Assembly (NCBI GenBank): GCA_001871535.1
Contig: MNVF01000038.1
Location: 1 to 33,063 of the forward strand
DNA length: 33,063 nt
From: Candidatus Micrarchaeota archaeon CG1_02_49_24
Lineage (GTDB): Archaea > Micrarchaeota > Micrarchaeia > Anstonellales > UBA8471
Reading direction: 5' to 3'
The position numbers and the translations under genes were made by a program. Under the pieces are notes generated by a model. The model was not told the DNA's origin. It searched no databases and was given only the letters and a program-made list of their open reading frames with translations. How positions within the stretch are numbered: the stretch's first letter is position 1; each line of letters begins with the position of its first letter. Of this stretch, positions 1-32,997 are shown one piece after another.

Positions 1-2
1 TT

Positions 3-83
3 GAGCGACCAGCACCCGTAGCGTTTCCGAATGGTGCTGGCGTTGGTTTTGCCCCACGGCACAACCATGCGCAAAACTCGCTC
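3..83 (-). repeat. Family-A double-hairpin element, copy 4. It is in inverted orientation, lies 3' of the aconitase-X small-subunit gene, and its outer stem may continue past the left edge of the window.
   Basis: Read on the minus strand the layout is gagcg-a-[gttttgc N18 gcaaaac]-caacg-[ccagcac N18 gtgctgg]-t-cgctc. Plus-strand coordinates are stems 9-15/34-40 and 46-52/71-77, loops 16-33 and 53-70 (18 nt each), linker 41-45. Confidence 0.75.
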
Positions 84-107
84 CAAAAGGTCATGGAATA
101 CATTCAA

Positions 108-1683: not shown

Positions 1684-3249
1684 CTACAAAAACCTTGTCA
1701 AATCAACCTTCGGGAAAACCGCTTTCCCGAAGTTCTTGCCATTCGCCTTCAACGGGGCAGTGCAGTCAAACCCGCATTTTGCGGTGAAGCACGTTCCGGG
1801 CTCGGCGCTCGGGTCCAGGCTTGAGCCTTTTTCCCTGGGTTTCATCACAAGGCCAGCGTCTGCCTGGAAGCGCGTTGCCATTGCCCACTCGATATCAAGG
1901 GGGTTGTAGATGTCAATGTCCTTGTCAACTATGAAGACGTGCTTGCAGCTTTTATGGCCTTCGAATGCCGCGGCAACCGCCTTTTTCCCGTCGTCTTCCT
2001 GCCGCTTGTCAATTTTGACTATCGCGTGCAGCCAGGAGCAGCCGCCTGGATTGATGTTCACGTCGAGGCATTTGACACCGGCTTCCTCAACCTTTTTGAA
2101 AATCGTGGGCTCGCGCGGCATGCCCATAATGACCTTGTGCTCAAGCTTGCCGGGCAGCAATGCCTGCCATATCGCATCTTTTCTATGGGTTATTCTTTTT
2201 ATCGTGAGCACCGGCTCCTGCCTTGTTATGTCTGTCGTCTCGGTAAGGTCAACAAACGGCCCTTCTGGGGCTTTTTCGTCAAGCCTGACAGTGCCCTCAA
2301 GTACAAACTCGCAGTCTGCCGGAATCGTGGCGTCAAACGTTTTCGCCCTTACAACCTTCAGCGACTCGAGCGAGTTTGCTATCTCCAGTTCGTTCAGGCC
2401 GAAGTCTACTGAGGTTGCGGCAGCAATAAGCACGTTTGGCGCATTGCCGACGCAGACCGCAACATTGAGCTCCTCGTTCTTTTTCAGCAGCTGGTCAAAG
2501 TGCCTGTCTCTTACGACCCGTATTGAAAATTTGTTCTTCCCTATCTGCATTGCCCTATGGAAATCCACGTTCTGTATGCCATCCTTGTCCCTTGTTATGA
2601 AGACCCCGGAACTTATGTAATTGCCGCCGTCTCCTTCGCAGTGGAAGAGTATGGGCAACTTGTCCAGGTCTATTTCCCCAAACTCCACTTCCTGGCAGGG
2701 CGCGCTTTTCACTTCCTCTGGCTTTGTGGGGTGCTCTATTGCCCGGGTTATCTTGGGGATAAGGCCGCCAGCATGAATACTCCGAGGGCTGAAGCCCTCG
2801 GTTTCTGCTGGGTAAACCTGTTCTGGTAATGTCTGTTGGGCTTCAGGCGAGAACCCAGCAGAAACCGCATAGGTGGGTGCGCTTTTTCCCAGCACTAAAC
2901 TGCTGGGTTTCGAGATATTTCTGAGCGAGTGCTGCGCTTGGGGTTGCCGTATGGCAGCACCAACGCCCGGGCCCAAACACCTATCTGTGCTGGCTCGGGT
3001 CGCTCCGGAATATCTCGGCGCACCCTCTGAGTATTCATCAATGCCGAAATAGGCGGCAACCTGCCCCTTGGTGGCAAAGATGTTTCCTGCAACCCTGAAG
3101 CCCGACCCCGTTATTTTTTCAAAAAGCACAGGCCTTTCGCCAGACCCGTTCAGTATGGCCGAAGCCTCCAATTTTCTTGAAACTGACTTTTTCACCGTTG
3201 TAAGCCGGCCCTGCGCGTCCAGCTTTTCAAGATAGCTGCGAAAACTCAT
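1684..3249 (-). CDS. UbiD-family decarboxylase, probably anhydromevalonate phosphate decarboxylase. It carries a ~91-codon in-frame insertion.
   Basis: The UbiD fold is recognisable over the whole ORF (PVLFEKI..GNIF, SAPCQEV, GNYISSGVFIT, PEGPFVDLTE, GGCSWLHAIV). ATG at 3249 overlaps the ubiX stop as ATGA, whereas the track start at 3258 is GTG. Residues ~75-165 are foreign to the family. Confidence 0.85.
   Translation of the reverse strand: MSFRSYLEKLDAQGRLTTVKKSVSRKLEASAILNGSGERPVLFEKITGSGFRVAGNIFATKGQVAAYFGIDEYSEGAPRYSGATRASTDRCLGPGVGAAIRQPQAQHSLRNISKPSSLVLGKSAPTYAVSAGFSPEAQQTLPEQVYPAETEGFSPRSIHAGGLIPKITRAIEHPTKPEEVKSAPCQEVEFGEIDLDKLPILFHCEGDGGNYISSGVFITRDKDGIQNVDFHRAMQIGKNKFSIRVVRDRHFDQLLKKNEELNVAVCVGNAPNVLIAAATSVDFGLNELEIANSLESLKVVRAKTFDATIPADCEFVLEGTVRLDEKAPEGPFVDLTETTDITRQEPVLTIKRITHRKDAIWQALLPGKLEHKVIMGMPREPTIFKKVEEAGVKCLDVNINPGGCSWLHAIVKIDKRQEDDGKKAVAAAFEGHKSCKHVFIVDKDIDIYNPLDIEWAMATRFQADAGLVMKPREKGSSLDPSAEPGTCFTAKCGFDCTAPLKANGKNFGKAVFPKVDLTRFL
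2764..3036 (+). repeat. Composite hairpin insertion inside the UbiD ORF (antisense to the gene). It contains family-A copy 3.
   Basis: Nested and adjacent inverted repeats account for most of it (a handful of short linker runs are left over). These are ccgagggc-tgaa-gccctcgg (2782-2801), ttctgctgggt/acccagcagaa (2803-2813/2853-2863), gggtgcgc/gcgcaccc (2875-2882/3018-3025), cccagca-ctaaac-tgctggg (2888-2907) and the core at 2911-3017. Confidence 0.8.
2911..3017 (+). repeat. Family-A double-hairpin element, copy 3
   Basis: The layout is cgagatatttctgagcg-a-[gtgctgc N18 gcagcac]-caacg-[cccgggcc N18 ggctcggg]-t-cgctccggaatatctcg. The loops are 2936-2953 and 2974-2991, both 18 nt. Confidence 0.85.
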
Positions 3250-3800
3250 TTGCCCCACCGCCTGAACTTTTCATTTTTAATTCCAAACAAATCCATTATC
3301 TTTCCGGTAATAAACGATTCCAAATCCTTTATAGTTTTGGGTTTATAATAGAACGCCGGAGACAGGGGGAAAACAATTACGCCATAAACCGAAAGGTCGT
3401 ACATGTTCCTCAGGGTAGGTGGGCTTAAAGGCGTTTCCCTGACGCACACCACAAGCCTTTTCCCAGTCTTCAGCATGTTGTCCGCGGCCCTTGAAATCAA
3501 AGTCGAGCAATCCGCCCTCGCAATCTCTGAAATGGTTTTAATTGAAGCCGGAATTACAATCATTCCATCCACCAGAAAGGAAGAGCTTGCAATGGGCGCA
3601 GTCATATCATGATTTGAAAAAACATGTGAAGCCAATTTTTTAATACTCGCAACCGTGCAACTGGTTTCTTCCACAACCAATTTTTCCGCCCAGTCGCTTA
3701 CCACCAGGAAGGTTTCAACCTTTGCCTCTTTCAGGGCATTCAGCAGGTCAATGGCGTAATTCACGCCAGATGCGCCGCAGATGCCGACTATAAGCCTCAA
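3246..3800 (-). CDS. ubiX: Flavin prenyltransferase UbiX (makes prenyl-FMN for the UbiD-family enzyme)
   Basis: The 184-aa ORF has an N-terminal MRLIVGICGASG flavoprotein motif and overall UbiX/Pad1 likeness. It is the first gene of the minus-strand operon. Confidence 0.9.
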   Translation of the reverse strand: MRLIVGICGASGVNYAIDLLNALKEAKVETFLVVSDWAEKLVVEETSCTVASIKKLASHVFSNHDMTAPIASSSFLVDGMIVIPASIKTISEIARADCSTLISRAADNMLKTGKRLVVCVRETPLSPPTLRNMYDLSVYGVIVFPLSPAFYYKPKTIKDLESFITGKIMDLFGIKNEKFRRWGK

Positions 3801-3889
3801 TAACTCACCCTAGAACATCAGATTTTACGAATTGAATGTAAATTATTGAAGTGCTGCCATTTAAAATCGGGGGTTTTGCCAATATAATT

Positions 3890-5113
3890 ATGGAAACTAC
3901 TAGTTCAGGGCAGCTATTCCAGCGCCTCAGGAAACAGGGCTATCACCTAGTGGGAAAACATTCTGCTGTGAAAGCCTGCAAATGGGCAGGCTGCGCACTT
4001 AGGAGAGAGGGCAAGTGCTACAAACACGCTTTTTACGGAATTGAGAGCCATCGCTGCGTCCAGTGCACGCCTGCATTGCAATTCTGCACCCTTTCATGCA
4101 GGTTTTGCTGGAGGATGATGCCCGAAATTTCAAAGCGAGTGCCGTATGAACCTGCACTTATTTGCGGCACCGACGCCCAAGCCCCTATGAAACCGCCCGA
4201 TGGCTTGGGTCGCTTGGAGATTTCGCCAGAGGAGAAATGGCAGAAATTGCCAACGGATTTTGAATGGGATGACGCAGGCACGATTATTGACGGACTGCTT
4301 ATGGGGCAGAAGAAACTTGTTTCCGGCTTTGGCGCATTTGCGGATAAAAAAATGTTCGGCGAAGCATTGGCTCCCAGGCATGCAGCCATAAGCCTTACCG
4401 GCGAGCCTACGATATACCCGCACCTTGGAGAATTGATTTGTGAATTCCATAAAAGGGAGATGACCACCTTCCTCGTGACAAATGGCACGCTACCTCAACA
4501 AATCCGAAAACTGGAAGCTGAAAAGCGCCTGCCCACCCAATTATATGTTTCAATGGTAGCCCCTGATGAGAAGACATACCTTCAGACCGCGCAAACCGAG
4601 GACAAACGGCTATGGAAAAACTATCTGGAAACATTGGAAATTTTGAAGGGAATTGGAAAATGTCACAGGACTGCGCTCAGGATGACGCTGGTGAAAAGAT
4701 TGAATGCAGGAACCCGAAACACACAACCCGAAACCCTGACATGTTGGAGCGAGCGCTCCGAGACGGCACTTATGGCAGGAGCGCCGACGCCCGAGCCACA
4801 GGACAATTCCATGAAGGCTCGGGTCGCTCCGACATGTCACCGAAACTGCATTGACGGTTATGCCAAGCAGATTGAGCTTGCCAAACCATGGTATGTGGAA
4901 GTGAAAAGCTTCGTTTATGTCGGAGGGGCAAGGAAGGAGGAGCGGGGCCTGTGCTTAAACGACATGCTCATGATGGAGGAGGTAAGGGAATTTGCAAAAC
5001 TGCTCGCTGAAAAAACAGGCTACATTATCGCGGCCGAGCATGCGCCCAGCAGGGTGGTGCTCCTGTGCAGGAATGAAAACGCAGCAGAAGGCAGGATAAT
5101 AAAACATGCCTGA
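3890..5113 (+). CDS. taw1: tRNA 4-demethylwyosine synthase Tyw1/Taw1 (radical SAM). It carries two in-frame insertions.
   Basis: Motifs seen are HSAVKACKW, the radical-SAM CTLSCRFCWR, SLTGEPT, FLVTNGT, LYVS and VEVKSFVYVGGAR. ATG at 3890 fits the family N-terminus, whereas the track start at 3851 is GTG. Confidence 0.85.
   Translation: METTSSGQLFQRLRKQGYHLVGKHSAVKACKWAGCALRREGKCYKHAFYGIESHRCVQCTPALQFCTLSCRFCWRMMPEISKRVPYEPALICGTDAQAPMKPPDGLGRLEISPEEKWQKLPTDFEWDDAGTIIDGLLMGQKKLVSGFGAFADKKMFGEALAPRHAAISLTGEPTIYPHLGELICEFHKREMTTFLVTNGTLPQQIRKLEAEKRLPTQLYVSMVAPDEKTYLQTAQTEDKRLWKNYLETLEILKGIGKCHRTALRMTLVKRLNAGTRNTQPETLTCWSERSETALMAGAPTPEPQDNSMKARVAPTCHRNCIDGYAKQIELAKPWYVEVKSFVYVGGARKEERGLCLNDMLMMEEVREFAKLLAEKTGYIIAAEHAPSRVVLLCRNENAAEGRIIKHA
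4124..4224 (+). repeat. Family-A double-hairpin element, copy 1 (inside Tyw1, sense orientation)
   Basis: The layout is gaaatttcaaagcg-a-[gtgccgt N18 gcggcac]-cgacg-[cccaagcc N18 ggcttggg]-t-cgcttggagatttc. The loops are 4146-4163 and 4184-4201. Confidence 0.85.
4703..4852 (+). repeat. 150-nt insertion inside Tyw1 containing family-A copy 2 (core 4738-4838)
   Basis: The outer clamp is aatgcag/ctgcatt (4703-4709/4846-4852). The core is gacatgttggagcg-a-[gcgctcc N18 ggagcgc]-cgacg-[cccgagcc N18 ggctcggg]-t-cgctccgacatgtc. The 5' arm carries aacccgaaac twice. Confidence 0.85.
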
Positions 5114-6256: not shown

Positions 6257-7432
6257 ATGATTATTTTAGACCTAGACGTAAAGAGGCATGAAGCCAGGGT
6301 CAGCGACGCCTCCAGCGTTGGCCAGCTGGTCAATGGCTGCTATGGCGAAATGGTGAAAGGCACCATCCACCTGACCCCGGAGGAAGCGCTCTATCTCATG
6401 GACATACGCAATGCCAGGGCATTTGACGAAAAACTCAACGAATATTCGTTCAACCAGGTGGCAGGCCTCTTCAAGGTGCCTAAGCTTATCCCCCGCTACC
6501 TGACCTATAAGGATTGGAGGGACAGGGGCCTCATTGCCCGCAATTTCAGGGATTTGGCAAGGCTCAACGAGCGCTTCAACAAGGACGTGGTGGCAAACTA
6601 CCCGCACTCTGAATTCCAGCCAAAGCAGTTCTCAGTTGACGGCATGTTCTTCAAGGACAGCCTCATGAGCGTAATCGATGAGGAAAATGCAGGCCGGGAG
6701 CTTTACAACACATATTGGATAGGCCAGTACGGCACCTACAAGGCAGATGCCCGCGGCAAGCTCCTGAAGCTGGATGTATACGAAACCCTTTTCCTGCTCA
6801 GGCATTTCAATTTCAAGCTGGTGAATTCAGATGAAAAAGAGGTCCTGGCAACTGCCAGGGGCCACAACAAGGACTTCCCAAGCCTTTATGATGTGTATGA
6901 GGACTGGCGGCTCAGGAACTTCATACTCAAGACAGGGTTCAAATTCGGCACCCATTTCCGGGTCTATTTCCCTGGCGCCAGCCCGGCAAAAAGCGGCACA
7001 GACTGGATGCATTCCAAGCACGTGATACACGTGTTTCCAAGGAAGAGCAAGCTGCTCATATCCGAATGGGCGCGGGCAATCAGGGTGGCCCATTCAGTGA
7101 GAAAGACGTTCATACTTGCCATCCCAGGGGAAAAGGCAAAGGGCGAAAAGGAAGTCAGTGAGCTGGATTTCCTGCTCTATCACAGGAGAAAGGAGGGCAT
7201 TGAGACGCCGCGGGAGGGCAAGCCGAAATACCTAATGTTTTCGCTCTCTGAGGAAGAGTTCATAGGCGGTGCTGAGCTTGCCAATGCGATTGAATTCTGC
7301 AAGAAAGCCGGCCTTGGCCTGATGCTTGCCATTGCGGATAGGGAGACCAGCGTCACCTACTACCTTGTGAGAAGGATTGACCTGAAGGGAAGCAAATACG
7401 GATATTATGAAATTGGATGGTACCAGCCGTAA
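6257..7432 (+). CDS. endA: tRNA-splicing endonuclease, single-chain multi-unit form (resembles the three-unit epsilon-type described for ARMAN archaea)
   Basis: The central catalytic unit is GFKFGTHFRVY...HSKHVIHVF...AHSVRKTFILAI (Tyr/His/Lys). An N-terminal unit has LTPEEALYLM and YKDWRDRGLIAR. An extra C-terminal structural unit ends in LMLAIADRETSVTYYLVRR. At 391 aa it is roughly twice a homotetramer-type subunit. Confidence 0.85.
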   Translation: MIILDLDVKRHEARVSDASSVGQLVNGCYGEMVKGTIHLTPEEALYLMDIRNARAFDEKLNEYSFNQVAGLFKVPKLIPRYLTYKDWRDRGLIARNFRDLARLNERFNKDVVANYPHSEFQPKQFSVDGMFFKDSLMSVIDEENAGRELYNTYWIGQYGTYKADARGKLLKLDVYETLFLLRHFNFKLVNSDEKEVLATARGHNKDFPSLYDVYEDWRLRNFILKTGFKFGTHFRVYFPGASPAKSGTDWMHSKHVIHVFPRKSKLLISEWARAIRVAHSVRKTFILAIPGEKAKGEKEVSELDFLLYHRRKEGIETPREGKPKYLMFSLSEEEFIGGAELANAIEFCKKAGLGLMLAIADRETSVTYYLVRRIDLKGSKYGYYEIGWYQP

Positions 7433-7494
7433 TGGTCTCGGGTCTTGGATATCTGGACTCTGAACCCTGGACTCTGGACCCTGGATTGATGGGG
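7433..7494. repeat. Heptamer-like word array (ggtcttgg atatctgg actctga accctgg actctgg accctgg)
   Basis: The array starts directly after the endA stop (TAA 7430-7432). It contains ggactctggaccc at 7469-7481, which recurs at 7889-7901. Confidence 0.7.
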
Positions 7495-7869: not shown

Positions 7870-9072
7870 ATGAATCCATCAGGACTCAGGACTCTGGACC
7901 CAAGACCCGCTGGACCCAAGACCCTGGACCCTAGACTCGACGGCAAGCATATCTGCATCTGCATCACAGGCAGCGTCGCCTCTGTCAGGGCATTCGACTT
8001 GGCAAGGCTGTTGATTAAATTTGGCGCCAAAGTTACCTGCGTTGCATCATCTGAAGCATTGCGCTTTGTGGCAAAGGAGAGCCTTGAATGGGCAACCGGC
8101 AACCCGGTGATTGACAAAATCACCTATAAGTGCGAGCACCTTGAGCTGGCAAAGTGCGATGCAGTTGTAATTGCGCCTGCAAGCGCAAATACAATTTCAA
8201 AAATCGCCCTGGGCATCGCCGACACGCCGGTTACCCTTGTGGCACAGAGCGCGCTGACACAAACACCCGCCATAATTGCGCCTGCCATGCACAGGCTGCT
8301 GATGAACCCCATAATCAAGGAGAACCTGAAAAAACTGGAAAAACTGGAAAAGGTCACGGTGATTCCTTCGGTGAAAGCCGATGGAAAGGAGAAATTGGCT
8401 GATGTGGAGGAGATTGCGGATTATGCAATAAGGGCAGTTGCGACAAAGCGCCTGGAAGGAAAGAGGATTTTGATAGTGGGAGGTGCCTTCAGGGAATACA
8501 TTGATGACGTGAGGTTCATTTCAAACGGAAGCTCTGGCAGGTTTTCGGTTGCGCTTGCGAAAGAATGTTTTTACCAGGGGGCGGATGTGACATTGGTGCA
8601 TGGAAAAACTGAGGTTGCCGCGCCAAAATATGTTGAAACGATGGGGATTGAAACAACAACGGAATTGATTGGAAAGATTGAAGAATTTGCGAAAGGAAAA
8701 TGCATCATACTCTTCCCGGCAGCCCTTAATGATTTTTCAATTGTGAAAAAAAAGGACGGCAAATTTGACAGCACAAAAAGGCAACCCATTGAGCTGGCGC
8801 CATTGCCGAAGGCAATCAAAATCGCAAGAGAAGCGAACAGAACGGCGAAAATAATCGGGTTTAAGGCTGAGGTTAGTAGCAGTGTTAATGCAGAAAAAAT
8901 AAAACGATTGCTGGAAAATTGTGATTCTCTTGTTTGGAATGATATTGGGAAGCATGGGTTTGGCAGTGATGAGACTGAGATAATTATATTTGCCAAAAGC
9001 GGAAAGGAAATTGGAAAATTTGCCGGGATGAAAGATGAACTGGCAGAGAGAATAATCGATTTGGTTCAGTGA
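7870..9072 (+). CDS. coaBC: Bifunctional phosphopantothenoylcysteine decarboxylase / phosphopantothenate-cysteine ligase (CoaBC/Dfp)
   Basis: The flavoprotein domain shows ICITGSVASV and APASANTISKIALGIADT. The DFP domain shows ILIVGGAFREYIDDVRFISNGSSG. The only ATG upstream of the core is 7870, so the first ~24 codons are encoded by the word array. Confidence 0.85.
   Translation: MNPSGLRTLDPRPAGPKTLDPRLDGKHICICITGSVASVRAFDLARLLIKFGAKVTCVASSEALRFVAKESLEWATGNPVIDKITYKCEHLELAKCDAVVIAPASANTISKIALGIADTPVTLVAQSALTQTPAIIAPAMHRLLMNPIIKENLKKLEKLEKVTVIPSVKADGKEKLADVEEIADYAIRAVATKRLEGKRILIVGGAFREYIDDVRFISNGSSGRFSVALAKECFYQGADVTLVHGKTEVAAPKYVETMGIETTTELIGKIEEFAKGKCIILFPAALNDFSIVKKKDGKFDSTKRQPIELAPLPKAIKIAREANRTAKIIGFKAEVSSSVNAEKIKRLLENCDSLVWNDIGKHGFGSDETEIIIFAKSGKEIGKFAGMKDELAERIIDLVQ
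7879..7940. repeat. Heptamer word array (caggact caggact ctggacc caagacc ... ctggacc ctagact) overlapping the coaBC 5' end
   Basis: It has a visible 7-nt period and shares ggactctggaccc (7889-7901) with the array at 7433-7494. Confidence 0.7.
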
Positions 9073-10854: not shown

Positions 10855-11110
10855 GAAAATCCCTCTAACAGTTGCGGGTTCCGGGTTGCGAGTTTCGGGC
10901 ACTGAATACGTAACTCGGAACTCATCGACCCGAAGGGGAGAGCTATTCGCCGGCAGGCGATCAACAGCTATTGCTGTTGAGAATTTCTCCAACTGGAGAA
11001 ATGCCAGCAGACGAATTCAAAAACCCGAAACCCGAAACTCTTATCAGCTGCCAATTGGATTTCGCTTGATAGCGAAAAGCTCGCAACATAGAAGATGTCG
11101 ACCACCTTGC
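10855..11110. repeat. Tetraloop mini-hairpin array (family B) in the intergenic leader
   Basis: Hairpins seen are tcaacagc-tatt-gctgttga (10961-10980), atttctcc-aact-ggagaaat (10983-11002) and tttcgct-tgat-agcgaaa (~11061-11078). The words acccgaaac and gagtttcggg occur in inverted copies. Confidence 0.7.
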
Positions 11111-16450: not shown

Positions 16451-16614
16451 TTCCTCTCCCCGTAAGTCTTCATGTTGATGAAACTGAAGAGAGCTTCGCT
16501 GCTCACGCATGCATGCTCTCATTCTGTTTGAATGCACCTGCGGATGCATAGCTCGGCGACTGTTGTCACCGATTCCCCAAGCCCCTTCACTTCCTCTCCC
16601 CGTAAGTCTTCATG
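16451..16614. repeat. 24-nt perfect direct repeat (16451-16474 and 16591-16614) flanking a 116-nt hairpin-rich insertion at the 3' end of the Cdc48-like gene
   Basis: ttcctctccccgtaagtcttcatg occurs twice, 140 nt apart. Both copies encode ...MKTYGERK followed by a stop (TGA at 16587, TAG at 16447). Confidence 0.8.
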
Positions 16615-19600
16615 AATGCATAATAAGCCTGCAACATCTCTAAGGAAATGGATGGCCGCCTGCCCTTTATCACTGCAAATATCTCTGCCATTGAGAGATG
16701 CGGTTCAATGCCCCTCAGCTTTTTCTTCACCATCTCAAGCTTGACCCCCTGGCAGATTGAGGTGATGTCTGCCGCCGAGAAGCCCTCAGTCAGCCTGCTG
16801 AGCTCATCATAATCAATGACTGCCCCTGCCGCCACACCCTCAAGGTTTCTCTGGAAGATGTTGGCCCGTGCTTTCAGGTCAGGCGGTGGGATGAACACTA
16901 TCTTGTCAAACCTGCCGGGCCTCATGAGCGCAGGGTCGAGAATCTCCGGCTTGTTGGTGGCGCCTATGAGAAGCACGTTCTTGAGCTCCCGGACCCCGTC
17001 AAGCTCGGAGAGCAGCTGGCCGACAAGGCCGCCATCTGAGAGCTCACGGGAGGGCGCCACAGTCTCAATCTCGTCTATGAATATGATGGCAGGCGCCTGC
17101 TCCTTGGCGCGGTTGAATGTTTCTTTCAGCACCCGGATGCTGTTGGCATAGCCCTTTTTGAGCAGCTCGGCACCTGAGAGAAACTGGAAGGTGGCCTTCA
17201 ACTCATTGGCGGCAGCCTTGACTATGAATGTTTTGCCGCACCCTGGAGGTCCGAATAGGAGCATGCCCTTGTAGGGCTTGACCTTGTACTGCTCCATCAA
17301 GTCCTCGTGGAGAAGCGGCAGCTCGATGGCATCCAGGAGAATGGTCTTCACCTCATCCAGGCCGACCACGTCTGCCCATCTCACAGCATCCTCTTTTTTC
17401 TTTTCCACCTGGCGGCCGACTCTCCTTTCGAAATCAAGCCGGAACTGCTCGTATTCCTCGAGCTGCTCCAGGCCGACGCTGGGCCTGACGTTGTCCAGCA
17501 CCCGCAGGAGGTGCTCCATGGTGATGGGCAGGATTTTGTTCTGCTTTGACGCGTCGGCGGCTGCAAACCGCGCGGCTTCCCTGCACACATTGGCTATATC
17601 AGCGCCCGAGAACCTGTCGGTTTTCTTTGCCAGGAGGCCAAGGTCGATATTTGCCGTTGGAAGCTTGCTCAGCTGCACCTTGAAAATGTCCTTTCTTCCT
17701 TCGGGGTCAGGCAGCTTCATATAGATGATTTTGTCGAACCTGCCGGGCCTGAGAAGGGCGGCATCAAGCATATTGGGGACGTTGGTGGTGCCTATGACCA
17801 TCACGGGCTTGGTTGCGCCCTTGTAGCCGTCAAGCTCTGTGAGAAAAACGGACATTACCCTGGGCGCCACGTCGTCTGCGCTGTAAAGCTCGCGCTTTTT
17901 CCCAATGGAATCAATCTCGTCAAAGAAAAGGATGGAGGGCGCGTTTTCCCTGGCGACCTTGAAAATTTCCGCGACATTTTTCTCGCTGTTGTGGGCAAAG
18001 ATGCCGCCGAACCCGCCAGCGAAATTCTGGCAGGGCTCAACTGAGATATCGTAAACGAATTCCTCATCGGCAACCTGCCTTATTTCCTCAACCCTGTCCC
18101 AATAGATGTCGCCATTGACCACTTTTTCAAGGCTGGTGGATGATGCACCAAGCTTTGTATGTTTCATCAGAAGAATTTGCCTGCCTATGGTTGCCGAGCC
18201 TGCCTCAGAATATTTCTTAAGGTTCCGGAAGACCCATTCCTTCAGCTCGCCGGAGAGCGGTATCTGCACATCGCGGTGCCAGGAACCGGCCTCAAGCGCG
18301 CATTCATACCGCTTGTTCCGCATATCATCCAGAAATCCTATCTGCCCAAAACCCCGGAAGGGTTCGCCGGTCAGGAAAATGCGATACATAAGGGCGCCGC
18401 TCCATTCCATTTTTTCACGCACAGTGGCAACGATGCCGAAATACAATAATAGATATAGAAGCTGGCTGGCAAGGGTTTTGCTGGCAGTGCAGGCCTCGAC
18501 AGTGCCAATTCCTTTCTGATTTTCATAAACCGTGCCATCGCCAGAGAAATAGCCCCTGAGAAAGGCGGCAAGCCTCAGCCTGTCAAGCGAGAACACGGCA
18601 ACTGGCGCCTTCTTCCTCTCAGCACCATGCTCAAGCCCAAGGAAATGCCTCATGAAAACATAAAGCACCCTACCTGGGATATATATGTCGCGGCCCCTGC
18701 CGACGCCACGAAAGTTTTCAGTTTTGGAGTTTCCAGTCTGGGAGTTTTGACTCTCTTCCCTTTCTTCTCCCGAGGGTCTTCTTTCTGGGAAAGAAGAGGC
18801 TCTTTTCTTTTCATAGATGATTATTTTGCCGAAAAGCTTTGCGCATAGTTCGGCAATCTTTCCGAGCTGGCAGTCAGAGGTGCTTACCCTGACCGTGTCT
18901 TCCCGAGTGTAGCTGCCCTCTGCAACCCACAGGCCGAGAAAGAGCGCCAGCTCTCCATCAAGCTTGATTATGCCCGGCAGGCCTTTGCAGGCGCCCTTTC
19001 CTGTGCAGACCAGGATTTTACTGCTGTCATATGAAATGCCGGTGCGCTCCATGAGTGCAATGAACCTGCCGGCCGGCAGTGAAATTTCCTTTTCCCTTGA
19101 CAGAATGTATTTCAAGTATTTGGTATTTTTTAGGCCGAGAAGGATATGTGTTTCGTTTGCGCCGATTTTTTCAACAGCAAGTTTTACGTAATCTCTGACT
19201 CGAGTTACCCTAAGGCCATAATCCGCATGTTTCAGGCTGCCGAGAAAATCAAGCTGCCCAACAGGTGCACTGGGAAACTCGACTCTGGAGGGGATTGCGA
19301 TGTATGAAAAACCCGCCTTGAGTTTTGAGGTTTCAATGCTCTTCACTGAGCTGCCGTCTATAGTGAATAGGGAATGATAACCGGTAACGCGAATTCTGCG
19401 GCCGCTCCTCGTGCGCACTTCGTAAATGGGGGATGTGCATTTGTGTTTTATGTGGCCGGCGATTTCGGCAAACACGGCTTTCCCTTTTTCGTCGAAGCTC
19501 AGAACTTTGGCATCCCTCCTTTGCTCAACAATTTCTCCAATCTTTGCAAGCTTTACCGCACCGTTTTCCATTATCATGATTTCCTCATCGTATGGCAGGC

Positions 19601-20912
19601 TTTCGCCGTACCATTGAGATAAAAGCTCTGAAGTTTTCACATTGTAGAAGCCATAGCTCATCTCCTTTGAGAGAGCGCGCATCAGCATGGTTTTGCCTGT
19701 TCCGGGCGGGCCGAAAAGAAGCACGCCGCTGGGCGGCTTTATGCCGTAGGTGAAGCTCAATTCCTTGTGAAGGAGCGGTGTGATGATTGCCTCGCGCAAC
19801 TCTGCCTTCACGTCATTGTAGTTGCCCACATCATCAAGGGATTTTTCAGCCGTTGACTCTGCCATGTCCTGGACGCCGAACTTGCCGAACTTCTTTGTCT
19901 TCCGCCTGCGCTCAATCAGGCGCTCCCTGCTAAGGTCAACACCGCAGAAGTCAAGCAGGGCCACAATGGCAATCGAGATTACTATATATATAACAGAAAC
20001 CGCAGAGAACATGAACGGCACGCCAAATGCGCTCAGCAAAAGATTGGCCGCAGGCACTCCTAAGAGGGAGAGCGCACCCACGGTCTGCTTCCAATTGCTC
20101 TTTATATTGCCAGGCAGCCAGCCTGCAAGGAACAGGATTGCCCCCCAAAGAAAAATGTGGAGAAGGCCTGAGTCGGCAATGAACAGCTTAAGCATATTGT
20201 CAGCAATTTTCCCCAGCGATGGGGTAATCTGCTTCAATATTATGTCATAGGAGAAAATTGAAACCACAGATGCGGCTGCCTTGGATGGGAGTTCCAGCAG
20301 GCCCACCTCTTCCCTGATGTCATGCTGGAGCGCATCAATCTTCGGGGTGAACTGGCCCAGGTTTGTGATAGGCATGAAGGCGCTGTTCTGCACTATCCAG
20401 AGCGAGGACAGGAGAAGGATTAAACAGACAGCCGGGATGGAAATCACAATACTCCGCTGGGAGCCGGTGCGGAAAGCCCCGAGCACCATGAGCAACGGCA
20501 CAAACCCGGAAAGCAGCGAAAATGGCAATGGCGCAAACGGCGCGCACACGATTATTTCAAGGAATGCAATGACATCCCAGTCTTCATGCATCTGGAATAG
20601 GACAAGGGAGATAATTAGCATAAACGGCCATACGAATAGCGGCGCCTGATAGGAGAGGGCAGGAATTGCGAATATTATGCCCATGATTATGCCAACCTGG
20701 GGAAACCTGTAGGCAGCCAGGCCGCAGGCGAGCGCAAGCAAAAATGAGATGTAAATAGGATAGAACTGGAAAAGCACGAGAAGATAGAGCGCGCCCAGGA
20801 AAATCAGCACAGCATTGCCGAGCTCCTTGTTCTCCTGAAGGGATTGTAGCGTTGCCCTGACCTTCTGCTCGGACATGGTTGCGGATTTCAGTTGTTGTGT
20901 TGAAGCGCTCAC
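16587..20912 (-). CDS. Membrane-anchored double-AAA+ ATPase (Cdc48/VCP-like D1+D2) interrupted by an intein
   Basis: About 330 N-terminal residues form multiple TM helices. D1 has Walker A GPPGTGKT and Walker B ILFFDEIDS. D2 has GPPGCGKT and IIFIDEIET. SRH-like and arginine-finger regions follow each domain. Confidence 0.85.
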   Translation of the reverse strand: MSASTQQLKSATMSEQKVRATLQSLQENKELGNAVLIFLGALYLLVLFQFYPIYISFLLALACGLAAYRFPQVGIIMGIIFAIPALSYQAPLFVWPFMLIISLVLFQMHEDWDVIAFLEIIVCAPFAPLPFSLLSGFVPLLMVLGAFRTGSQRSIVISIPAVCLILLLSSLWIVQNSAFMPITNLGQFTPKIDALQHDIREEVGLLELPSKAAASVVSIFSYDIILKQITPSLGKIADNMLKLFIADSGLLHIFLWGAILFLAGWLPGNIKSNWKQTVGALSLLGVPAANLLLSAFGVPFMFSAVSVIYIVISIAIVALLDFCGVDLSRERLIERRRKTKKFGKFGVQDMAESTAEKSLDDVGNYNDVKAELREAIITPLLHKELSFTYGIKPPSGVLLFGPPGTGKTMLMRALSKEMSYGFYNVKTSELLSQWYGESLPYDEEIMIMENGAVKLAKIGEIVEQRRDAKVLSFDEKGKAVFAEIAGHIKHKCTSPIYEVRTRSGRRIRVTGYHSLFTIDGSSVKSIETSKLKAGFSYIAIPSRVEFPSAPVGQLDFLGSLKHADYGLRVTRVRDYVKLAVEKIGANETHILLGLKNTKYLKYILSREKEISLPAGRFIALMERTGISYDSSKILVCTGKGACKGLPGIIKLDGELALFLGLWVAEGSYTREDTVRVSTSDCQLGKIAELCAKLFGKIIIYEKKRASSFPERRPSGEEREESQNSQTGNSKTENFRGVGRGRDIYIPGRVLYVFMRHFLGLEHGAERKKAPVAVFSLDRLRLAAFLRGYFSGDGTVYENQKGIGTVEACTASKTLASQLLYLLLYFGIVATVREKMEWSGALMYRIFLTGEPFRGFGQIGFLDDMRNKRYECALEAGSWHRDVQIPLSGELKEWVFRNLKKYSEAGSATIGRQILLMKHTKLGASSTSLEKVVNGDIYWDRVEEIRQVADEEFVYDISVEPCQNFAGGFGGIFAHNSEKNVAEIFKVARENAPSILFFDEIDSIGKKRELYSADDVAPRVMSVFLTELDGYKGATKPVMVIGTTNVPNMLDAALLRPGRFDKIIYMKLPDPEGRKDIFKVQLSKLPTANIDLGLLAKKTDRFSGADIANVCREAARFAAADASKQNKILPITMEHLLRVLDNVRPSVGLEQLEEYEQFRLDFERRVGRQVEKKKEDAVRWADVVGLDEVKTILLDAIELPLLHEDLMEQYKVKPYKGMLLFGPPGCGKTFIVKAAANELKATFQFLSGAELLKKGYANSIRVLKETFNRAKEQAPAIIFIDEIETVAPSRELSDGGLVGQLLSELDGVRELKNVLLIGATNKPEILDPALMRPGRFDKIVFIPPPDLKARANIFQRNLEGVAAGAVIDYDELSRLTEGFSAADITSICQGVKLEMVKKKLRGIEPHLSMAEIFAVIKGRRPSISLEMLQAYYAFMKTYGERK
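17988..19601 (-). mobile_element. 538-aa intein with a LAGLIDADG homing-endonuclease domain, inserted in AAA+ D1 between Walker A and Walker B
   Basis: The host junction is WYGE|S...FAHN|SEKNV, which restores the canonical GESEKNV. Block B is RVTGYHSLF. The two LAGLIDADG motifs are LALFLGLWVAEGS and LAAFLRGYFSGDGT. The C-terminal block is VYDISVEP..NFAGG..IFAHN followed by Ser+1. Confidence 0.85.
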
Positions 20913-20959: not shown

Positions 20960-21290
20960 GGACTAGATTCACAGGTATCAGATTTTACGAAGAGCCCATC
21001 GAGCAGACTTTGTCTGTTTGAGCTATCGCGCAACAGCACGATTCAATCGGCGGCAGCAGTCGGCGAGATTTTCACCCGCAGGTGAAAAGCCAGCAGGCAA
21101 TCGGCGGCAGCAGTCGCCGAGCTATGCACCATCTGGTGCATTCAACTGTCAGCAAGGCTGACAGTACACAGATTGAGCCTGTTTGAATCGACCTGTTGGT
21201 TGATCAGATTTTCCGAAGAGCCTCTCTCGCTGATGCGAGAGACCCTGCACAATGTGCAGGGTATGAAGGCTCATTCGGAAAATCTGATAA
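20960..21290. repeat. Hairpin-dense divergent intergenic region (families B and C)
   Basis: Hairpins seen are cagac-ttt-gtctg (21004-21016), ttttcacc-cgca-ggtgaaaa (21069-21088), tgcacc-atct-ggtgca (21125-21140), ctgtcag-caagg-ctgacag (21146-21164) and tcgacc-tgtt-ggttga (21188-21203). The direct repeat caatcggcggcagcagtcg recurs 55 nt apart. Confidence 0.75.
21203..21281 (+). repeat. 79-nt perfect repeat, copy A (family-C three-way-junction element)
   Basis: It is identical to 32919-32997. The fold is cagattttccgaagagcc-[tctctcgc tgat gcgagaga]-[ccctgcac aatg tgcaggg]-tatgaa-ggctcattcggaaaatctg. The closing stem extends to 21287 in this copy. Confidence 0.9.
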
Positions 21291-21467
21291 TATAGATAAC
21301 ATAACCCCACGTAACTATTTGCACATCCAATTTAAATTTTGCACCCCAGTTGTACAACCATGCAGTTCCTTGCATATTCACTCAGCAGCCTTCCCTTTCT
21401 TTATCCCCTCCAGCAATCATCGCGCAGCAGCGCCACCACAAGCTTCTACCTGGATGACGCCACCAAG

Positions 21468-22613
21468 ATGGCAATCCTTATCATAGTTTTCTCAGCCGGA
21501 TTCATAGCCCTCCTCTACCTCATGAAAAAAACCAGCGCGAAAAAGACGAAATATCTCACCAGCGTAGACACCCAGAGGCTGCCGGGCGAAGGCGCCCATG
21601 TGGGCCGAATCGCAGAGCAGAGCTTGAGTGCCTACCTGCCCTTTGACAAGCTCACCATGCATTCCCTGGTGGCAGGCGCCACTGGTTCAGGCAAGACCGT
21701 TGCTGCCCAGGTAGTTGCCGAGGAGGCGCTCCTGAACAAGGTGAGCATACTCGTGTTTGACCCAACGGCGCAATGGACAGGCTTCCTCAGGAAGCAGGCT
21801 ATAAGCGATATGCTGAAACGGTATGCGCGGTTTGGCCTGCAAAAGAGCGATGCGCGTGCATTCGACGGCAACATCTACCTAGTGGAAAATTCCGAAACGT
21901 TCCAGATAAACGTGAAAAAATACATGATGCCCGGAGAGATAAACGTATTCGTGCTGAACAGGCTGAAGCCCCAGGAGATGGAAATCATTGTTACCCGCGT
22001 GATTAAGGCGGTATTCGAGGCGAACCTGGAGGAATACAGGGGGCTGCGGCTGCTCATTGTGTTTGACGAGGTGCACAGGCTGCTTCCGAAGTTCGGGGGG
22101 ACTGGTGAAGGGTTTAAGCAGATAGAACGCGCGGTCCGCGAGTTCAGGAAATGGGGCGTTGGGATGGTGCTTGTCTCCCAGGTGCTGAGCGATTTTGTTG
22201 GTGAAATCAAGGCGAACATTGGCACTGAGATGCAGTTCCGGACGAAATACGAGCAGGATTTGGAGCGCATACGCTACAAATTCGGCCCGGAATCATTGCT
22301 GGGAGTGGTGAAGGCAAATGTCGGCACCGGGCTGATGCACAATTCGGAATACAACAACGGCAATCCCTATTTCGTGGAATTCCGGCCGCTCTTGCACAAT
22401 GTGGTGCGATTGAGCGACAAGGAGCTTGACACTTATAAAAGGTATAATGACAGGATTGTGGCGTTGGAGCAGAGAATTGAGAAAATGAAGGAAGATGGGA
22501 ATGATGTATTTGATTTGAACCTTGAGCTGAACCTGGCAAAAGATAAAATGAAAAAGGGCGCGTTCAACATTGTGGATATTTACCTTGAGAGCCTGGAAGG
22601 GAAGACGGCTTGA
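21468..22613 (+). CDS. Membrane-anchored P-loop NTPase of the HerA/FtsK/VirB4-like (DUF87-type) kind
   Basis: It has an N-terminal TM (MAILIIVFSAGFIALLYL), Walker A (VAGATGSGKT) and Walker B (LLIVFDEVHRL). The start was moved from TTG 21339 to ATG 21468. Confidence 0.65.
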   Translation: MAILIIVFSAGFIALLYLMKKTSAKKTKYLTSVDTQRLPGEGAHVGRIAEQSLSAYLPFDKLTMHSLVAGATGSGKTVAAQVVAEEALLNKVSILVFDPTAQWTGFLRKQAISDMLKRYARFGLQKSDARAFDGNIYLVENSETFQINVKKYMMPGEINVFVLNRLKPQEMEIIVTRVIKAVFEANLEEYRGLRLLIVFDEVHRLLPKFGGTGEGFKQIERAVREFRKWGVGMVLVSQVLSDFVGEIKANIGTEMQFRTKYEQDLERIRYKFGPESLLGVVKANVGTGLMHNSEYNNGNPYFVEFRPLLHNVVRLSDKELDTYKRYNDRIVALEQRIEKMKEDGNDVFDLNLELNLAKDKMKKGAFNIVDIYLESLEGKTA

Positions 22614-22812
22614 AAAGGACCTGCTCTTCCAGGCTGACGATAATGTTCTACTCTTGGTCCATAATGTTCTGGGAAGGCACACGCCACTCTTTCTCTAGTG
22701 CGGTTATCCCAGCCGCCTGCGACATTAGAAACAAATTGGGCAAGATATGTTCCCACAACTTCTTTAGGATCAGGGCGTGTAGTAACTTCCTGTAGTGCAA
22801 CTTTAGCATGAT

Positions 22813-23100
22813 TTCTTATGCCCTCTGGTAATCCATCATCATGGATGGCTTCACGTAACAAATCTGTCCGGCCGATTCCTGCCGCAGCGTCAAGCGCATA
22901 TGTTCTTATGCCCTCTGGTGATCCATCATCATGGATGGCTTCCCTTAACAAATCTGTCCGGCCGATTCCTGCCGCAGCGTCAAGCGCCGTATGCATTTGC
23001 GTTTGCGCATGGTTTCTTATGCCCTCTGGTAATCCATCATCATGGATGGCTTCCCTTAACAAATCTGTCCAGCCTCTTCCTGCCGCAGCGTCAAGCGCAC
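22813..23100 (-). repeat. Three near-identical coding repeat units (offsets 90 and 111 nt) encoding HEAT repeats
   Basis: ttcttatgccctctggt.atccatcatcatggatggcttc...tcctgccgcagcgtcaagcgc starts at 22813, 22903 and 23014. The peptide is LDAAAGIGRTDLLREAIHDDG.PEGIR. Confidence 0.85.
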
Positions 23101-23106
23101 TTTTTA

Positions 23107-23204
23107 GTAAAGTCCCTATCTTGCCAACCACTTCATCTCTATTTCCTCGGAATACAGGGTGTGCACGAGCCCGGTAAAGTCCCTATCTTGCCAACCACTT
23201 CATC
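23107..23204. repeat. 31-nt perfect direct repeat (23107-23137 and 23174-23204) bracketing 36 unique nt
   Basis: gtaaagtccctatcttgccaaccacttcatc occurs twice with a 67-nt offset. Confidence 0.85.
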
Positions 23205-32918: not shown

Positions 32919-32997
32919 ATCAGATTTTCCGAAGAGCCTCTCTCGCTGATGCGAGAGACCCTGCACAATGTGCAGGGTATGAAGGCTCATTCGGAAA
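32919..32997 (+). repeat. 79-nt perfect repeat, copy B (family-C element)
   Basis: It is identical to 21203-21281 and lies upstream of the 31583..32833 gene. Confidence 0.9.

Follow-up and report, generated by a model that had tools for sequence, protein, structure and literature searches.

The window analysed here, a stretch of 33,063 nucleotides (nt) from Candidatus Micrarchaeota archaeon CG1_02_49_24 (assembly GCA_001871535.1, contig MNVF01000038.1, positions 1 to 33,063), contains the gene order UbiD-UbiX-Tyw1-HAD-x-EndA-...-Dfp, which it has in common with contig L001 of its closest relative (NCBI GCA_964358515.1). The subject of this study is a palindromic repeat within the Tyw1 (Taw1) gene, here termed insertion 1, which lies in frame between the radical-SAM (S-adenosylmethionine) cysteine motif CxxxCxxC and the EWDD segment of the encoded enzyme, and which belongs to a dispersed, structured repeat family designated family A. 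The features of the gene and of insertion 1 are as follows.

3851..5113, + strand: host gene Tyw1/Taw1 (4-demethylwyosine synthase, radical SAM), from Pfam and PDB matches
4121..4122, + strand: CC dinucleotide at the 5' junction, repeated at 4226-4227; candidate 2-bp target-site duplication, from the filled site versus the empty site of L001
4123..4225, + strand: family-A copy 'Tyw1 insertion 1', a 103-nt imperfect palindrome with a three-way junction, from covariance model (CM) R1, the fold and empty sites in relatives
4123..4138, + strand: outer stem 5' arm CGAAATTTCAAAGCGA, pairing with 4210-4225 (alignment columns 4-19 / 91-106)
4139..4170, + strand: hairpin 1, 7-bp stem GTGCCGT/GCGGCAC with an 18-nt loop (columns 20-26 / 45-51)
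4171..4175, + strand: unpaired junction linker CGACG, family consensus CRACG (columns 52-56, invariant or near-invariant in 19 copies)
4176..4209, + strand: hairpin 2, 8-bp stem CCCAAGCC/GGCTTGGG with an 18-nt loop (columns 57-64 / 83-90)
4210..4225, + strand: outer stem 3' arm TCGCTTGGAGATTTCG, from the alignment and the DNA fold
4226..4240, + strand: CCAGAGGAGAAATGG (P-E-E-K-W), probably homologous to CCTGAAAATAAGTGG of L001, with 10/15 positions identical to the L001 empty site

The maximal open reading frame (ORF) of Tyw1 encodes 420 amino acids (aa), the database version being 407 aa with a start 13 codons later, and contains the Pfam domains Radical_SAM and Wyosine_form. In a sequence search of known structures it matched TYW1 of P. 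horikoshii (2YX0, E 2e-68), and PDB entries 6DJT and 2Z2U were also matched by sequence. The radical-SAM motif is present as C79-x3-C83-x2-C86 (CRFCWR being residues 83-88) and the EWDD segment, preceded by F137, occupies residues 138-141, with a separation of 49 residues between R88 and E138. Residues C43, C56, K58, C69, C79, C83 and C86, which are invariant across 84 orthologues, are all retained; by reference to M. jannaschii TYW1 they correspond to the cysteines of the auxiliary cluster, the lysine that forms the Schiff base and the cysteines of the radical-SAM motif. Comparison with L001, with the inserts excluded, yielded a dN/dS ratio of 0.20 (dS 0.37), and purifying selection therefore acts on the gene. 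When modelled with AlphaFold2 (mean pLDDT 82.9, pTM 0.82, more than 270 residues with pLDDT >90), the protein reached a target-normalised TM score of 0.88-0.90 against three solved TYW1 structures, while residues 93-128 and 290-325 were modelled with pLDDT <50 and without secondary structure. Furthermore, an identical 407-aa Tyw1 protein is encoded in a second assembly from another project (GCA_013330115.1), and the insert is therefore not an artefact of a single assembly.

Insertion 1 begins six residues after C86, the last cysteine of the cluster motif, and its encoded peptide EISKRVPYEPALICGTDAQAPMKPPDGLGRLEIS corresponds to residues 92-125, from which a predicted tryptic peptide specific to the insert, VPYEPALICGTDAQAPMKPPDGLGR, may be derived. 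The original prediction, which was made from the sequence of the window, had held that the excess residues of this loop coincide with a 101-nt element. The coincidence itself was borne out; the palindrome, however, measures 103 nt, the terminal pair being C4123-G4225 and the proposed limits (4124-4224) the next pair in, and the net insertion amounts to 105 nt (35 codons), that is, 103 nt plus CC. The mirror symmetry EISKR...RLEIS that had been noticed in the peptide is genuine and is the product of the self-complementary GAAATTTC arms. The outer stem consists of nine continuous base pairs, one A·G mismatch and a further six base pairs; folding as DNA gave -23.1 kcal/mol (z -4.2), and folding as RNA in its context gave -42.6 kcal/mol with a stem and two internal hairpins. 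When scored with CM R1, which was built from related copies, insertion 1 attained 91.3 bits (E 9e-22) on the + strand versus 36.5 bits on the - strand, a match that is not due to chance.

The Tyw1 protein of the closest relative (P0002, encoded on L001) is 74% identical to that of the window and reads CWRMMPEN-KWQKLP, being 35 codons (105 nt) shorter exactly at insertion 1. In the DNA of L001 the empty site is formed by ATGATGCCTGAAAAT directly followed by AAGTGGCAG, at the junction of which the window has 105 extra bases. The site is likewise empty in L115 and in the more distant L002; those named Tyw1 homologues that lie at a greater distance carry the annotation Candidatus Micrarchaeota. 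The loop from R88 to W139 comprises 12-18 residues in 75 of the 84 orthologues and 50 residues in the window, which agrees with the expected contrast of some 15 versus some 50 residues, and no unrelated orthologue carries a segment of the same length and similar sequence. The repeat at this position is thus absent from L001, L002 and nearly all orthologues, and it represents an insertion as opposed to an ancestral trait. Mapping on 2YX0 gave the same result, since query residues 92->137 correspond to chain residues 94->102, leaving approximately 37 extra residues at insertion 1. A second insert was evident in the same alignment, where query residues 285->335 correspond to chain residues 250->255; this second loop has five residues in 80 of the 84 orthologues and reaches 50 in the window and P0002 alone. 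This insertion 2 is present in the window and in L001 and not in L002, which is devoid of both insertions. By parsimony, insertion 1 would have been gained in the lineage of the window after its split from L001, and insertion 2 earlier. Further empty sites were sought among the fetched related loci; the Tyw1 cases were the only ones found, other apparent 'empty' matches being flanks that consist of repeats themselves.

The supposition that this part of the enzyme is strongly constrained was not upheld. In addition to the disorder predicted by AlphaFold2 at residues 93-128, loops of 23-60 residues with unrelated sequences occur at the site of insertion 1 in nine of the 84 Micrarchaeota-like orthologues. 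One of the nine, from another Micrarchaeon (P0005, locus L156:3338-3432), owes its length to a net insert of 96 nt, which is placed 16 residues beyond the position of insertion 1 in this loop. This insert forms a Y-shaped palindrome with a junction repeat of GCA, is a distant family-A relative (CM R1, 24.8 bits, E 4e-5, same orientation) and is missing from a relative of P0005, in which the site is empty (L158, P0019). The loop has thus been colonised twice, on independent occasions. A separate in-frame insert of 48 nt was observed in the L001 gene itself (L001:2686-2734, GIEHPKDARAIAQERD), between the codons for auxiliary-cluster cysteines. It consists of two small hairpins (GCATCC-TAA-GGATGC and ATCGCGC-AAGA-GCGCGAT); since an element in L133 has a similar sequence at its flank, another small repeat family is probably involved.

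CM R1 detected exactly four copies of family A in the window at 58-109 bits, with approximately 50 bits less on the opposite strand, and the element thus has a defined polarity. The three copies besides insertion 1 are as follows.

4737..4839, + strand: family-A copy 'Tyw1 insertion 2', sense to the gene, in a reading frame other than that of insertion 1 (CM 109.3 bits)
2913..3015, + strand: family-A copy in the UbiD-family gene (1684-3258, - strand), antisense to the gene and in frame (CM 97.4 bits)
1..85, - strand: family-A copy cut by the left end of the window (CM 57.6 bits, model positions 12-98)

Insertion 2 is bracketed by CCCGAAA-type heptamers (about 4709-4736 and 4840-4846) that are themselves part of the insertion, and the 3' heptamer tract of L001 exceeds that of the window by 21 nt (three units). 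The copy in the UbiD gene falls between the Pfam domains UbiD_N and UbiD and is missing from the UbiD protein of L001 (472 aa, versus 524 aa in the window), while orthologous copies in L118 and L131 differ in hairpin sequence with the pairing preserved. A separate, simple hairpin in the same UbiD gene (2799-2867, CGGTTTCTGCTGGGT...ACCCAGCAGAAACCG, z -4.2) is also missing from L001. The truncated copy at the left end recurs in L123, L136 and L151, where it is followed by another copy in a tandem array. Such arrays, in which arms are shared, were encountered repeatedly, and copies frequently lie within other palindromic elements or directly beside them.

Beyond the window, the common pattern of the family (AGCGAG-N30-CCRACGCC-N28-30-GGTCGCT) was scanned with fixed gaps in public metagenomes and was found at 43 loci, of which, upon inspection, approximately 34, from groundwater samples, were considered genuine and nine were considered chance matches in GC-rich DNA. 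CM R1 recovered additional, diverged copies in the fetched related loci. The fixed-gap pattern had no match in viral contigs, a loose gapped version on genome contigs returned only chance matches in GC-rich bacteria, and no similarity to the element was found in plasmid and phage collections.

Alignment of 19 distinct copies required no internal gaps except for a 2-nt gap in two of them, and the consensus fold is a three-way junction composed of a 16-bp outer stem, a 7-bp hairpin, the unpaired CRACG linker and an 8-bp hairpin; the same junction was predicted independently by RNAalifold. Pairing is maintained in 94.4% of cells and 17 of the 31 pairs display double changes, values that none of 500 column shuffles reached and of which controls with slid partners also fell far short. 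This applies to each helix, with 91% of cells paired and double changes in 8/16 pairs of the outer stem, 99% paired and compensatory changes in 5/7 pairs of hairpin 1, and 96% paired and compensatory changes in 4/8 pairs of hairpin 2. The outermost 10 bp or so of the outer stem vary between copies with compensatory changes, and stem decay can be seen within insertion 2, where pairs that are C-G elsewhere have decayed differently in the window and in L001, to T·G in one and to C·A in the other.

The conserved structure appears to be maintained in DNA. A functional RNA transcribed from one strand would tolerate G·U pairs and not A·C pairs; among the stem cells of 26 unique copies that depart from Watson-Crick pairing, however, 18 are G·T and 19 are A·C. 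This equality, together with the occurrence of both orientations within genes, gives no sign of a strand-specific RNA. Copies lie in frame in Tyw1 (at two sites, both sense), in UbiD (antisense), in a MutL homologue, within its disordered linker (L148, antisense), in the C-terminal part of an uncharacterised 634-aa ORF (L146/L151, tandem copies of mixed orientation) and in P0121 (sense) and P0122 (antisense), two small hypothetical proteins that are probably membrane or pilin-like; hairpin 1 of the P0121 copy contains an additional, nested segment. The latter two hosts were retrieved by a protein search with six concatenated peptides, which missed the window's own Tyw1 and is not a valid census. 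Some copies are intergenic or lie upstream of genes. The host reading frame is +1 for insertion 1 and +2 for insertion 2, and two antisense frames are used elsewhere; the encoded peptides are therefore unrelated between copies. Four of the six frames are free of stop codons in 60-85% of copies, while the two 'frame 0' readings meet the TGA of the usual TGACA terminus.

Taken together, the findings favour, with a probability of approximately 0.78, an interpretation in which insertion 1 is a selfish palindromic repeat that was inserted in frame and is carried as a disordered loop, most likely a non-coding, 'Y-shaped' element resembling either MITEs (short for miniature inverted-repeat transposable elements) or Rickettsia palindromic elements (RPEs). 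The element would have entered Tyw1 at the DNA level in a Micrarchaeota-like lineage after the split from L001, and the insertion would have survived because it kept the frame, carried no stop codon in that frame and fell in a surface loop of variable length after the Fe-S motif. The insert would then be transcribed and translated with the gene and would form a disordered loop of approximately 35 residues that serves no purpose in itself. The need for a three-way junction would arise from the propagation of the element, at the level of single-stranded or cruciform DNA in source copies, and not from a function of the Tyw1 mRNA.

Several observations weigh against this interpretation or limit it. 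Translation of the insert may be presumed only from the preservation of the frame. Open frames number 50 across the copies as opposed to 38 ± 4 in dinucleotide shuffles (6 of 1000 shuffles reach 50), and this depletion of stop codons, which is modest evidence as the copies are not independent, could reflect adaptation to coding hosts rather than pure survivorship. The outer stem of insertion 1 differs from the nearest subfamily by several double, compensated changes, and insertion 2 has a dS of 0.13 (only three synonymous differences) as against 0.37 elsewhere in the gene; each of these might be an indication that copies already in place are subject to structural constraint or gene conversion. 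Additionally, the junction duplication is at most 2-3 bp, is inconsistent across subfamilies and is absent from some, so that formal MITE status is not established. No transposase domain was found among the ORFs of the window and no autonomous partner was seen, nor were separated half-sites or a long element with family-A termini detected in 247 kb of related loci.

At insertion 1 the candidate duplication is best described by the CC pair at 4121-4122 and 4226-4227. The sequence at 4226-4240 is probably the original Pro-Glu...Lys-Trp of the loop, which may formerly have read ATG ATG CCA GAG GAG AAA TGG (M-M-P-E-E-K-W; compare CCT GAA AAT AAG TGG in L001), and the upstream P91-E92 would have been rebuilt from CC and the element's own 5' CGAA. 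Matching flanking dinucleotides were found at 10 of approximately 22 distinct copies; eight of these represent one subfamily (with TGACATGT termini), each copy of which is embedded in CCCGAAA-type heptamer arrays, and are not independent. A duplication of 6-7 bp at insertion 1 (CCCGAA / CCAGAG) was considered and is less parsimonious, 103 nt plus CC being preferred because it fits the column-by-column alignment of the family. A duplicated palindromic target of 8-10 bp, which was suggested by the self-complementary arms of three window copies (GAAATTTC, GACATGTC and GAGATATCTC), was ruled out as the termini of other copies (TGACACGTT...AACGTGTCA) are inverted and not direct repeats.

Among known systems, intragenic ERIC and RU elements of enterobacteria and prokaryotic MITEs are comparable (PMC10969869, PMC2759123), and the closest analogue is provided by the RPEs. 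The latter are palindromes of about 150 bp in ten families, with 44 occurrences in R. conorii, nearly half of them in frame within ORFs (PMC10969869). Like family A, RPEs are palindromes of approximately 100-150 bp that fall into several families in a small-genome lineage, that frequently insert in frame into unrelated housekeeping genes as a peptide segment compatible with the fold, and whose mobilising activity is not known. Their host, however, is alphaproteobacterial rather than archaeal (Micrarchaeota-like, DPANN), and the two are likened by description, with no known sequence relationship. According to the summary of Ogata et al. 2000 given in PMC10969869, each RPE encodes a conserved peptide, whereas the copies of family A use four or more frames, in either orientation, and so give differing peptides; the three-way junction, with its strong covariation and conserved junction motifs, is the defining trait of family A.

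MITEs resemble family A in being small (below approximately 500 bp, here 103 nt), non-coding, multicopy and hairpin-forming, with terminal inverted repeats (here the 16-bp outer stem), polymorphic presence or absence (insertion 1, the UbiD copy, L156/L158) and occasional in-frame fusion to ORFs. They are known in some archaea (Sulfolobus, haloarchaea). Conversely, the window and the 247 kb of related loci yielded no parent insertion sequence whose termini match those of family A, its duplication is at most 2-3 bp and inconsistent, its termini vary with compensatory changes where a MITE would have a fixed transposase-binding repeat, and it is the internal Y structure that is conserved. The IS200/IS605-derived palindrome-associated elements (PATEs) and the REP/BIME elements, which are mobilised by Y1 (HUH) transposases, are comparable to family A in that they make at most a very short target-site duplication, and recognition of secondary structure in DNA would fit covariation with equal G·T and A·C. 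They differ in having no long terminal inverted repeat enclosing the hairpins and in using a fixed target of 4-5 nt, and no TnpA or RAYT gene was present in the sequences inspected. An element of the IS200/IS605 type was rejected as the 5' flanks differ between copies (…ACCC, …TCGG, …GGCT, …GGCG) and a long terminal inverted repeat is present. An integron attC site, considered because such sites are defined by their structure, was judged unlikely too, since the TGACA...TGTCA termini are unlike the RYYYAAC/GTTRRRY cores and the copies do not lie between gene cassettes. Family A therefore works like RPEs, ERIC elements and MITEs and is not a demonstrated member of any of them. In the open-access literature on Micrarchaeota, DPANN and other archaea no description of such elements was found, which is not proof of novelty, and family A appears to be undescribed for Archaea.

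Two means of spread fit the data. A structure-recognising enzyme acting on single-stranded or cruciform DNA is one option, in line with a geometry that is constant at 30 + 30 nt, with the conservation of the junction motifs and with G·T and A·C being equally numerous. Copying by repair or recombination is the other, given the microhomology-sized junction repeats and the mosaic copies. A bolder reading, which we put forward tentatively and consider more doubtful than the reading of insertion 1 itself, is that family A and a second palindrome family of the window (family B, described below) would together constitute a previously undescribed class of archaeal mobile DNA, defined by its three-way DNA junction in place of fixed terminal repeats, mobilised by a structure-specific enzyme and systematically colonising permissive loops and linkers of DPANN housekeeping proteins; in these genome-reduced archaea such palindromes would then regularly give rise to new peptide segments.

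The second option amounts to a rival explanation, in which spread would need no transposase and would proceed by recombination or by templated break repair (microhomology copying or template switching), the symmetry being kept by hairpin-templated repair and not by selection for enzyme recognition. The junction identities of just 2-3 bp (CC at insertion 1, GCA in L156) would be expected on this account, as would the lack of any transposase or long parent element in the window and the related loci. Nested elements, tandem arrays with shared arms and mosaic-looking hairpins point in the same direction, and the orthologous UbiD copies of the window and L118 have different hairpin sequences, as gene conversion would give. 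However, the absence of a transposase is weak evidence given that the search covered fragments of genomes, and the constant core (spacers of 30 + 30 nt), the conserved junction motifs and the defined orientation fit recognition by a specific protein better. Spread of this kind is thus somewhat unlikely, though it is the best placed of the rivals.

A domesticated function was also considered, in which the insert or its nucleic-acid structure would now serve the host, be it as a new loop beside the active site that binds tRNA or a partner, as a site of translational pausing or as DNA bound by a protein, a role known for some bacterial REP and ERIC elements. The insert is indeed placed near the approach of the substrate, six residues past the last cluster cysteine, the same Tyw1 loop has been extended repeatedly in related lineages, and both the depletion of stop codons and the compensated stem changes of insertion 1 relative to its nearest subfamily would be in keeping with such a role. 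Against this, the closest relative lacks the insert while its Tyw1 is otherwise conserved, the insert is predicted to be disordered, the peptide is wholly different between copies (their frames being different) and the loop extensions of other lineages consist of unrelated peptides. A domesticated role is therefore improbable.

Removal at the RNA level is more improbable still. According to this explanation the hairpin would be excised from the Tyw1 transcript by a three-unit EndA of broad specificity or by self-cleavage, representing a new kind of archaeal splicing. Archaeal bulge-helix-bulge (BHB) introns, known from tRNA, rRNA and the cbf5 mRNA of Crenarchaeota, are similar to insertion 1 in that they are short, structured inserts, here with an EndA gene nearby, and in that removal of 105 nt (the element and one CC) would restore the canonical protein, with MMPEEKWQKLP in a 15-residue loop, which is among the commonest lengths. 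The element is also a compact and very stable structure. The EndA gene in question lies 2 kb downstream.

6257-7432, + strand: tRNA-splicing endonuclease EndA, 391 aa, in which both the N-terminal and the catalytic domain were detected

Three-unit EndA enzymes reported from ARMAN/Micrarchaeota are of this size, and L001 and L156 likewise encode an EndA of 391-393 aa beside Tyw1. However, EndA is a universal archaeal gene and its proximity consequently carries no weight. In a BHB motif the exon-intron junctions are marked by a 4-bp helix that lies between two 3-nt bulges; none can be drawn here, the outer stem being a continuous 16-bp helix and the flanking GCC / CCA being unable to pair. The UbiD and MutL copies are antisense with the frame still open, and coding copies are all free of stops and of in-frame length, neither of which splicing would require. 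Family A further differs from BHB introns in being independent of orientation, in having a frame that is always open and in occurring between genes and in tandem arrays, and its stems have no excess of G·U over A·C. No ribozyme or intron family was matched even at E <= 1; a search of the whole window against Rfam 15 gave no match at gathering score, and in 2700-5000 only two weak, off-target matches appeared at E <= 1. A BHB intron was accordingly rejected on the grounds that no BHB can be drawn and that antisense copies exist in UbiD and MutL. An intein was rejected because the insert encodes 34-35 aa (inteins having at least ~130 aa and protein-splicing blocks with an N-terminal Cys/Ser and a C-terminal His-Asn plus nucleophile), the conservation is at the nucleotide level and Tyw1 contains no Pfam intein domain. 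Finally, mis-assembly through a repeat or a decaying Tyw1 pseudogene can be dismissed almost entirely, for although the left end of the window falls in an element array, showing that repeats do break assemblies here, the identical 407-aa protein was assembled by a second project, the insert has unique sequence on both sides, the ORF is intact, the catalytic residues are conserved and dN/dS is 0.20.

The window harbours further repeats. Family B is a second family of Y-shaped palindromes (21203-21289, 32919-32997 and a partial copy at 20976-21007), with two hairpins on a 20-bp outer stem (z -10.9 for a DNA fold of -37.8 kcal/mol); a pair of copies of 79 nt, separated by 11.7 kb, shows 100% identity. 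Family-A copies in L119, L142 and L146 lie inside family-B-like sequence, and the elements are thus nested. Heptamer repeats of the type CTGGACY (7439-7493 and 7880-7936) bracket the intergenic segment 7446-7944 between EndA and Dfp, which in L001 is replaced by unrelated DNA with a 251-aa ORF, so that a replaced or indel region is bounded by heptamer arrays; a further CCCGAAA tandem is present at 11014-11047. Additional features are as follows.

16587-20912, - strand: Cdc48/VCP-like double AAA ATPase, 1441 aa, with an intein carrying a LAGLIDADG homing-endonuclease domain (Pfam Intein_splicing, residues 447-975)
16528-16577 versus 21096-21145: inverted repeat of 50 nt on either side of the Cdc48 gene, its arms 84% complementary and 4.5 kb apart
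21044-21138: tandem pair (54-nt spacing) of that inverted-repeat unit, a further family beside a family-B copy
22806-23099: three tandem units of 90-111 nt, 92-94% identical, inside a ribbon-helix-helix (CopG-like) ORF (22580-23131, - strand) that adjoins a HerA/DUF87-type ATPase gene (21339-22613)

If the interpretation of insertion 1 as a selfish repeat is correct, the phenomenon of selfish DNA in protein-coding genes, which is best known from Rickettsia, would also exist in ultrasmall DPANN archaea, where it would reach an Fe-S radical-SAM enzyme within a few residues of its cluster ligands. In practical terms, Micrarchaeota marker genes that contain such inserts yield inflated and distorted protein alignments, domain calls and phylogenies; the inserts should be masked, and the covariance model provides a means of finding them. 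Filled and empty sites can distinguish strains within groundwater populations. For a structure at the DNA level, the covariation of the family is unusually clean, with equal G·T and A·C and both orientations represented, and through the conserved CRACG junction the long-open question of how RPE-like elements move becomes more testable. The independent inserts in the same Tyw1 loop of two lineages represent a natural experiment on which sites of a radical-SAM fold can accommodate 30-45 extra residues.

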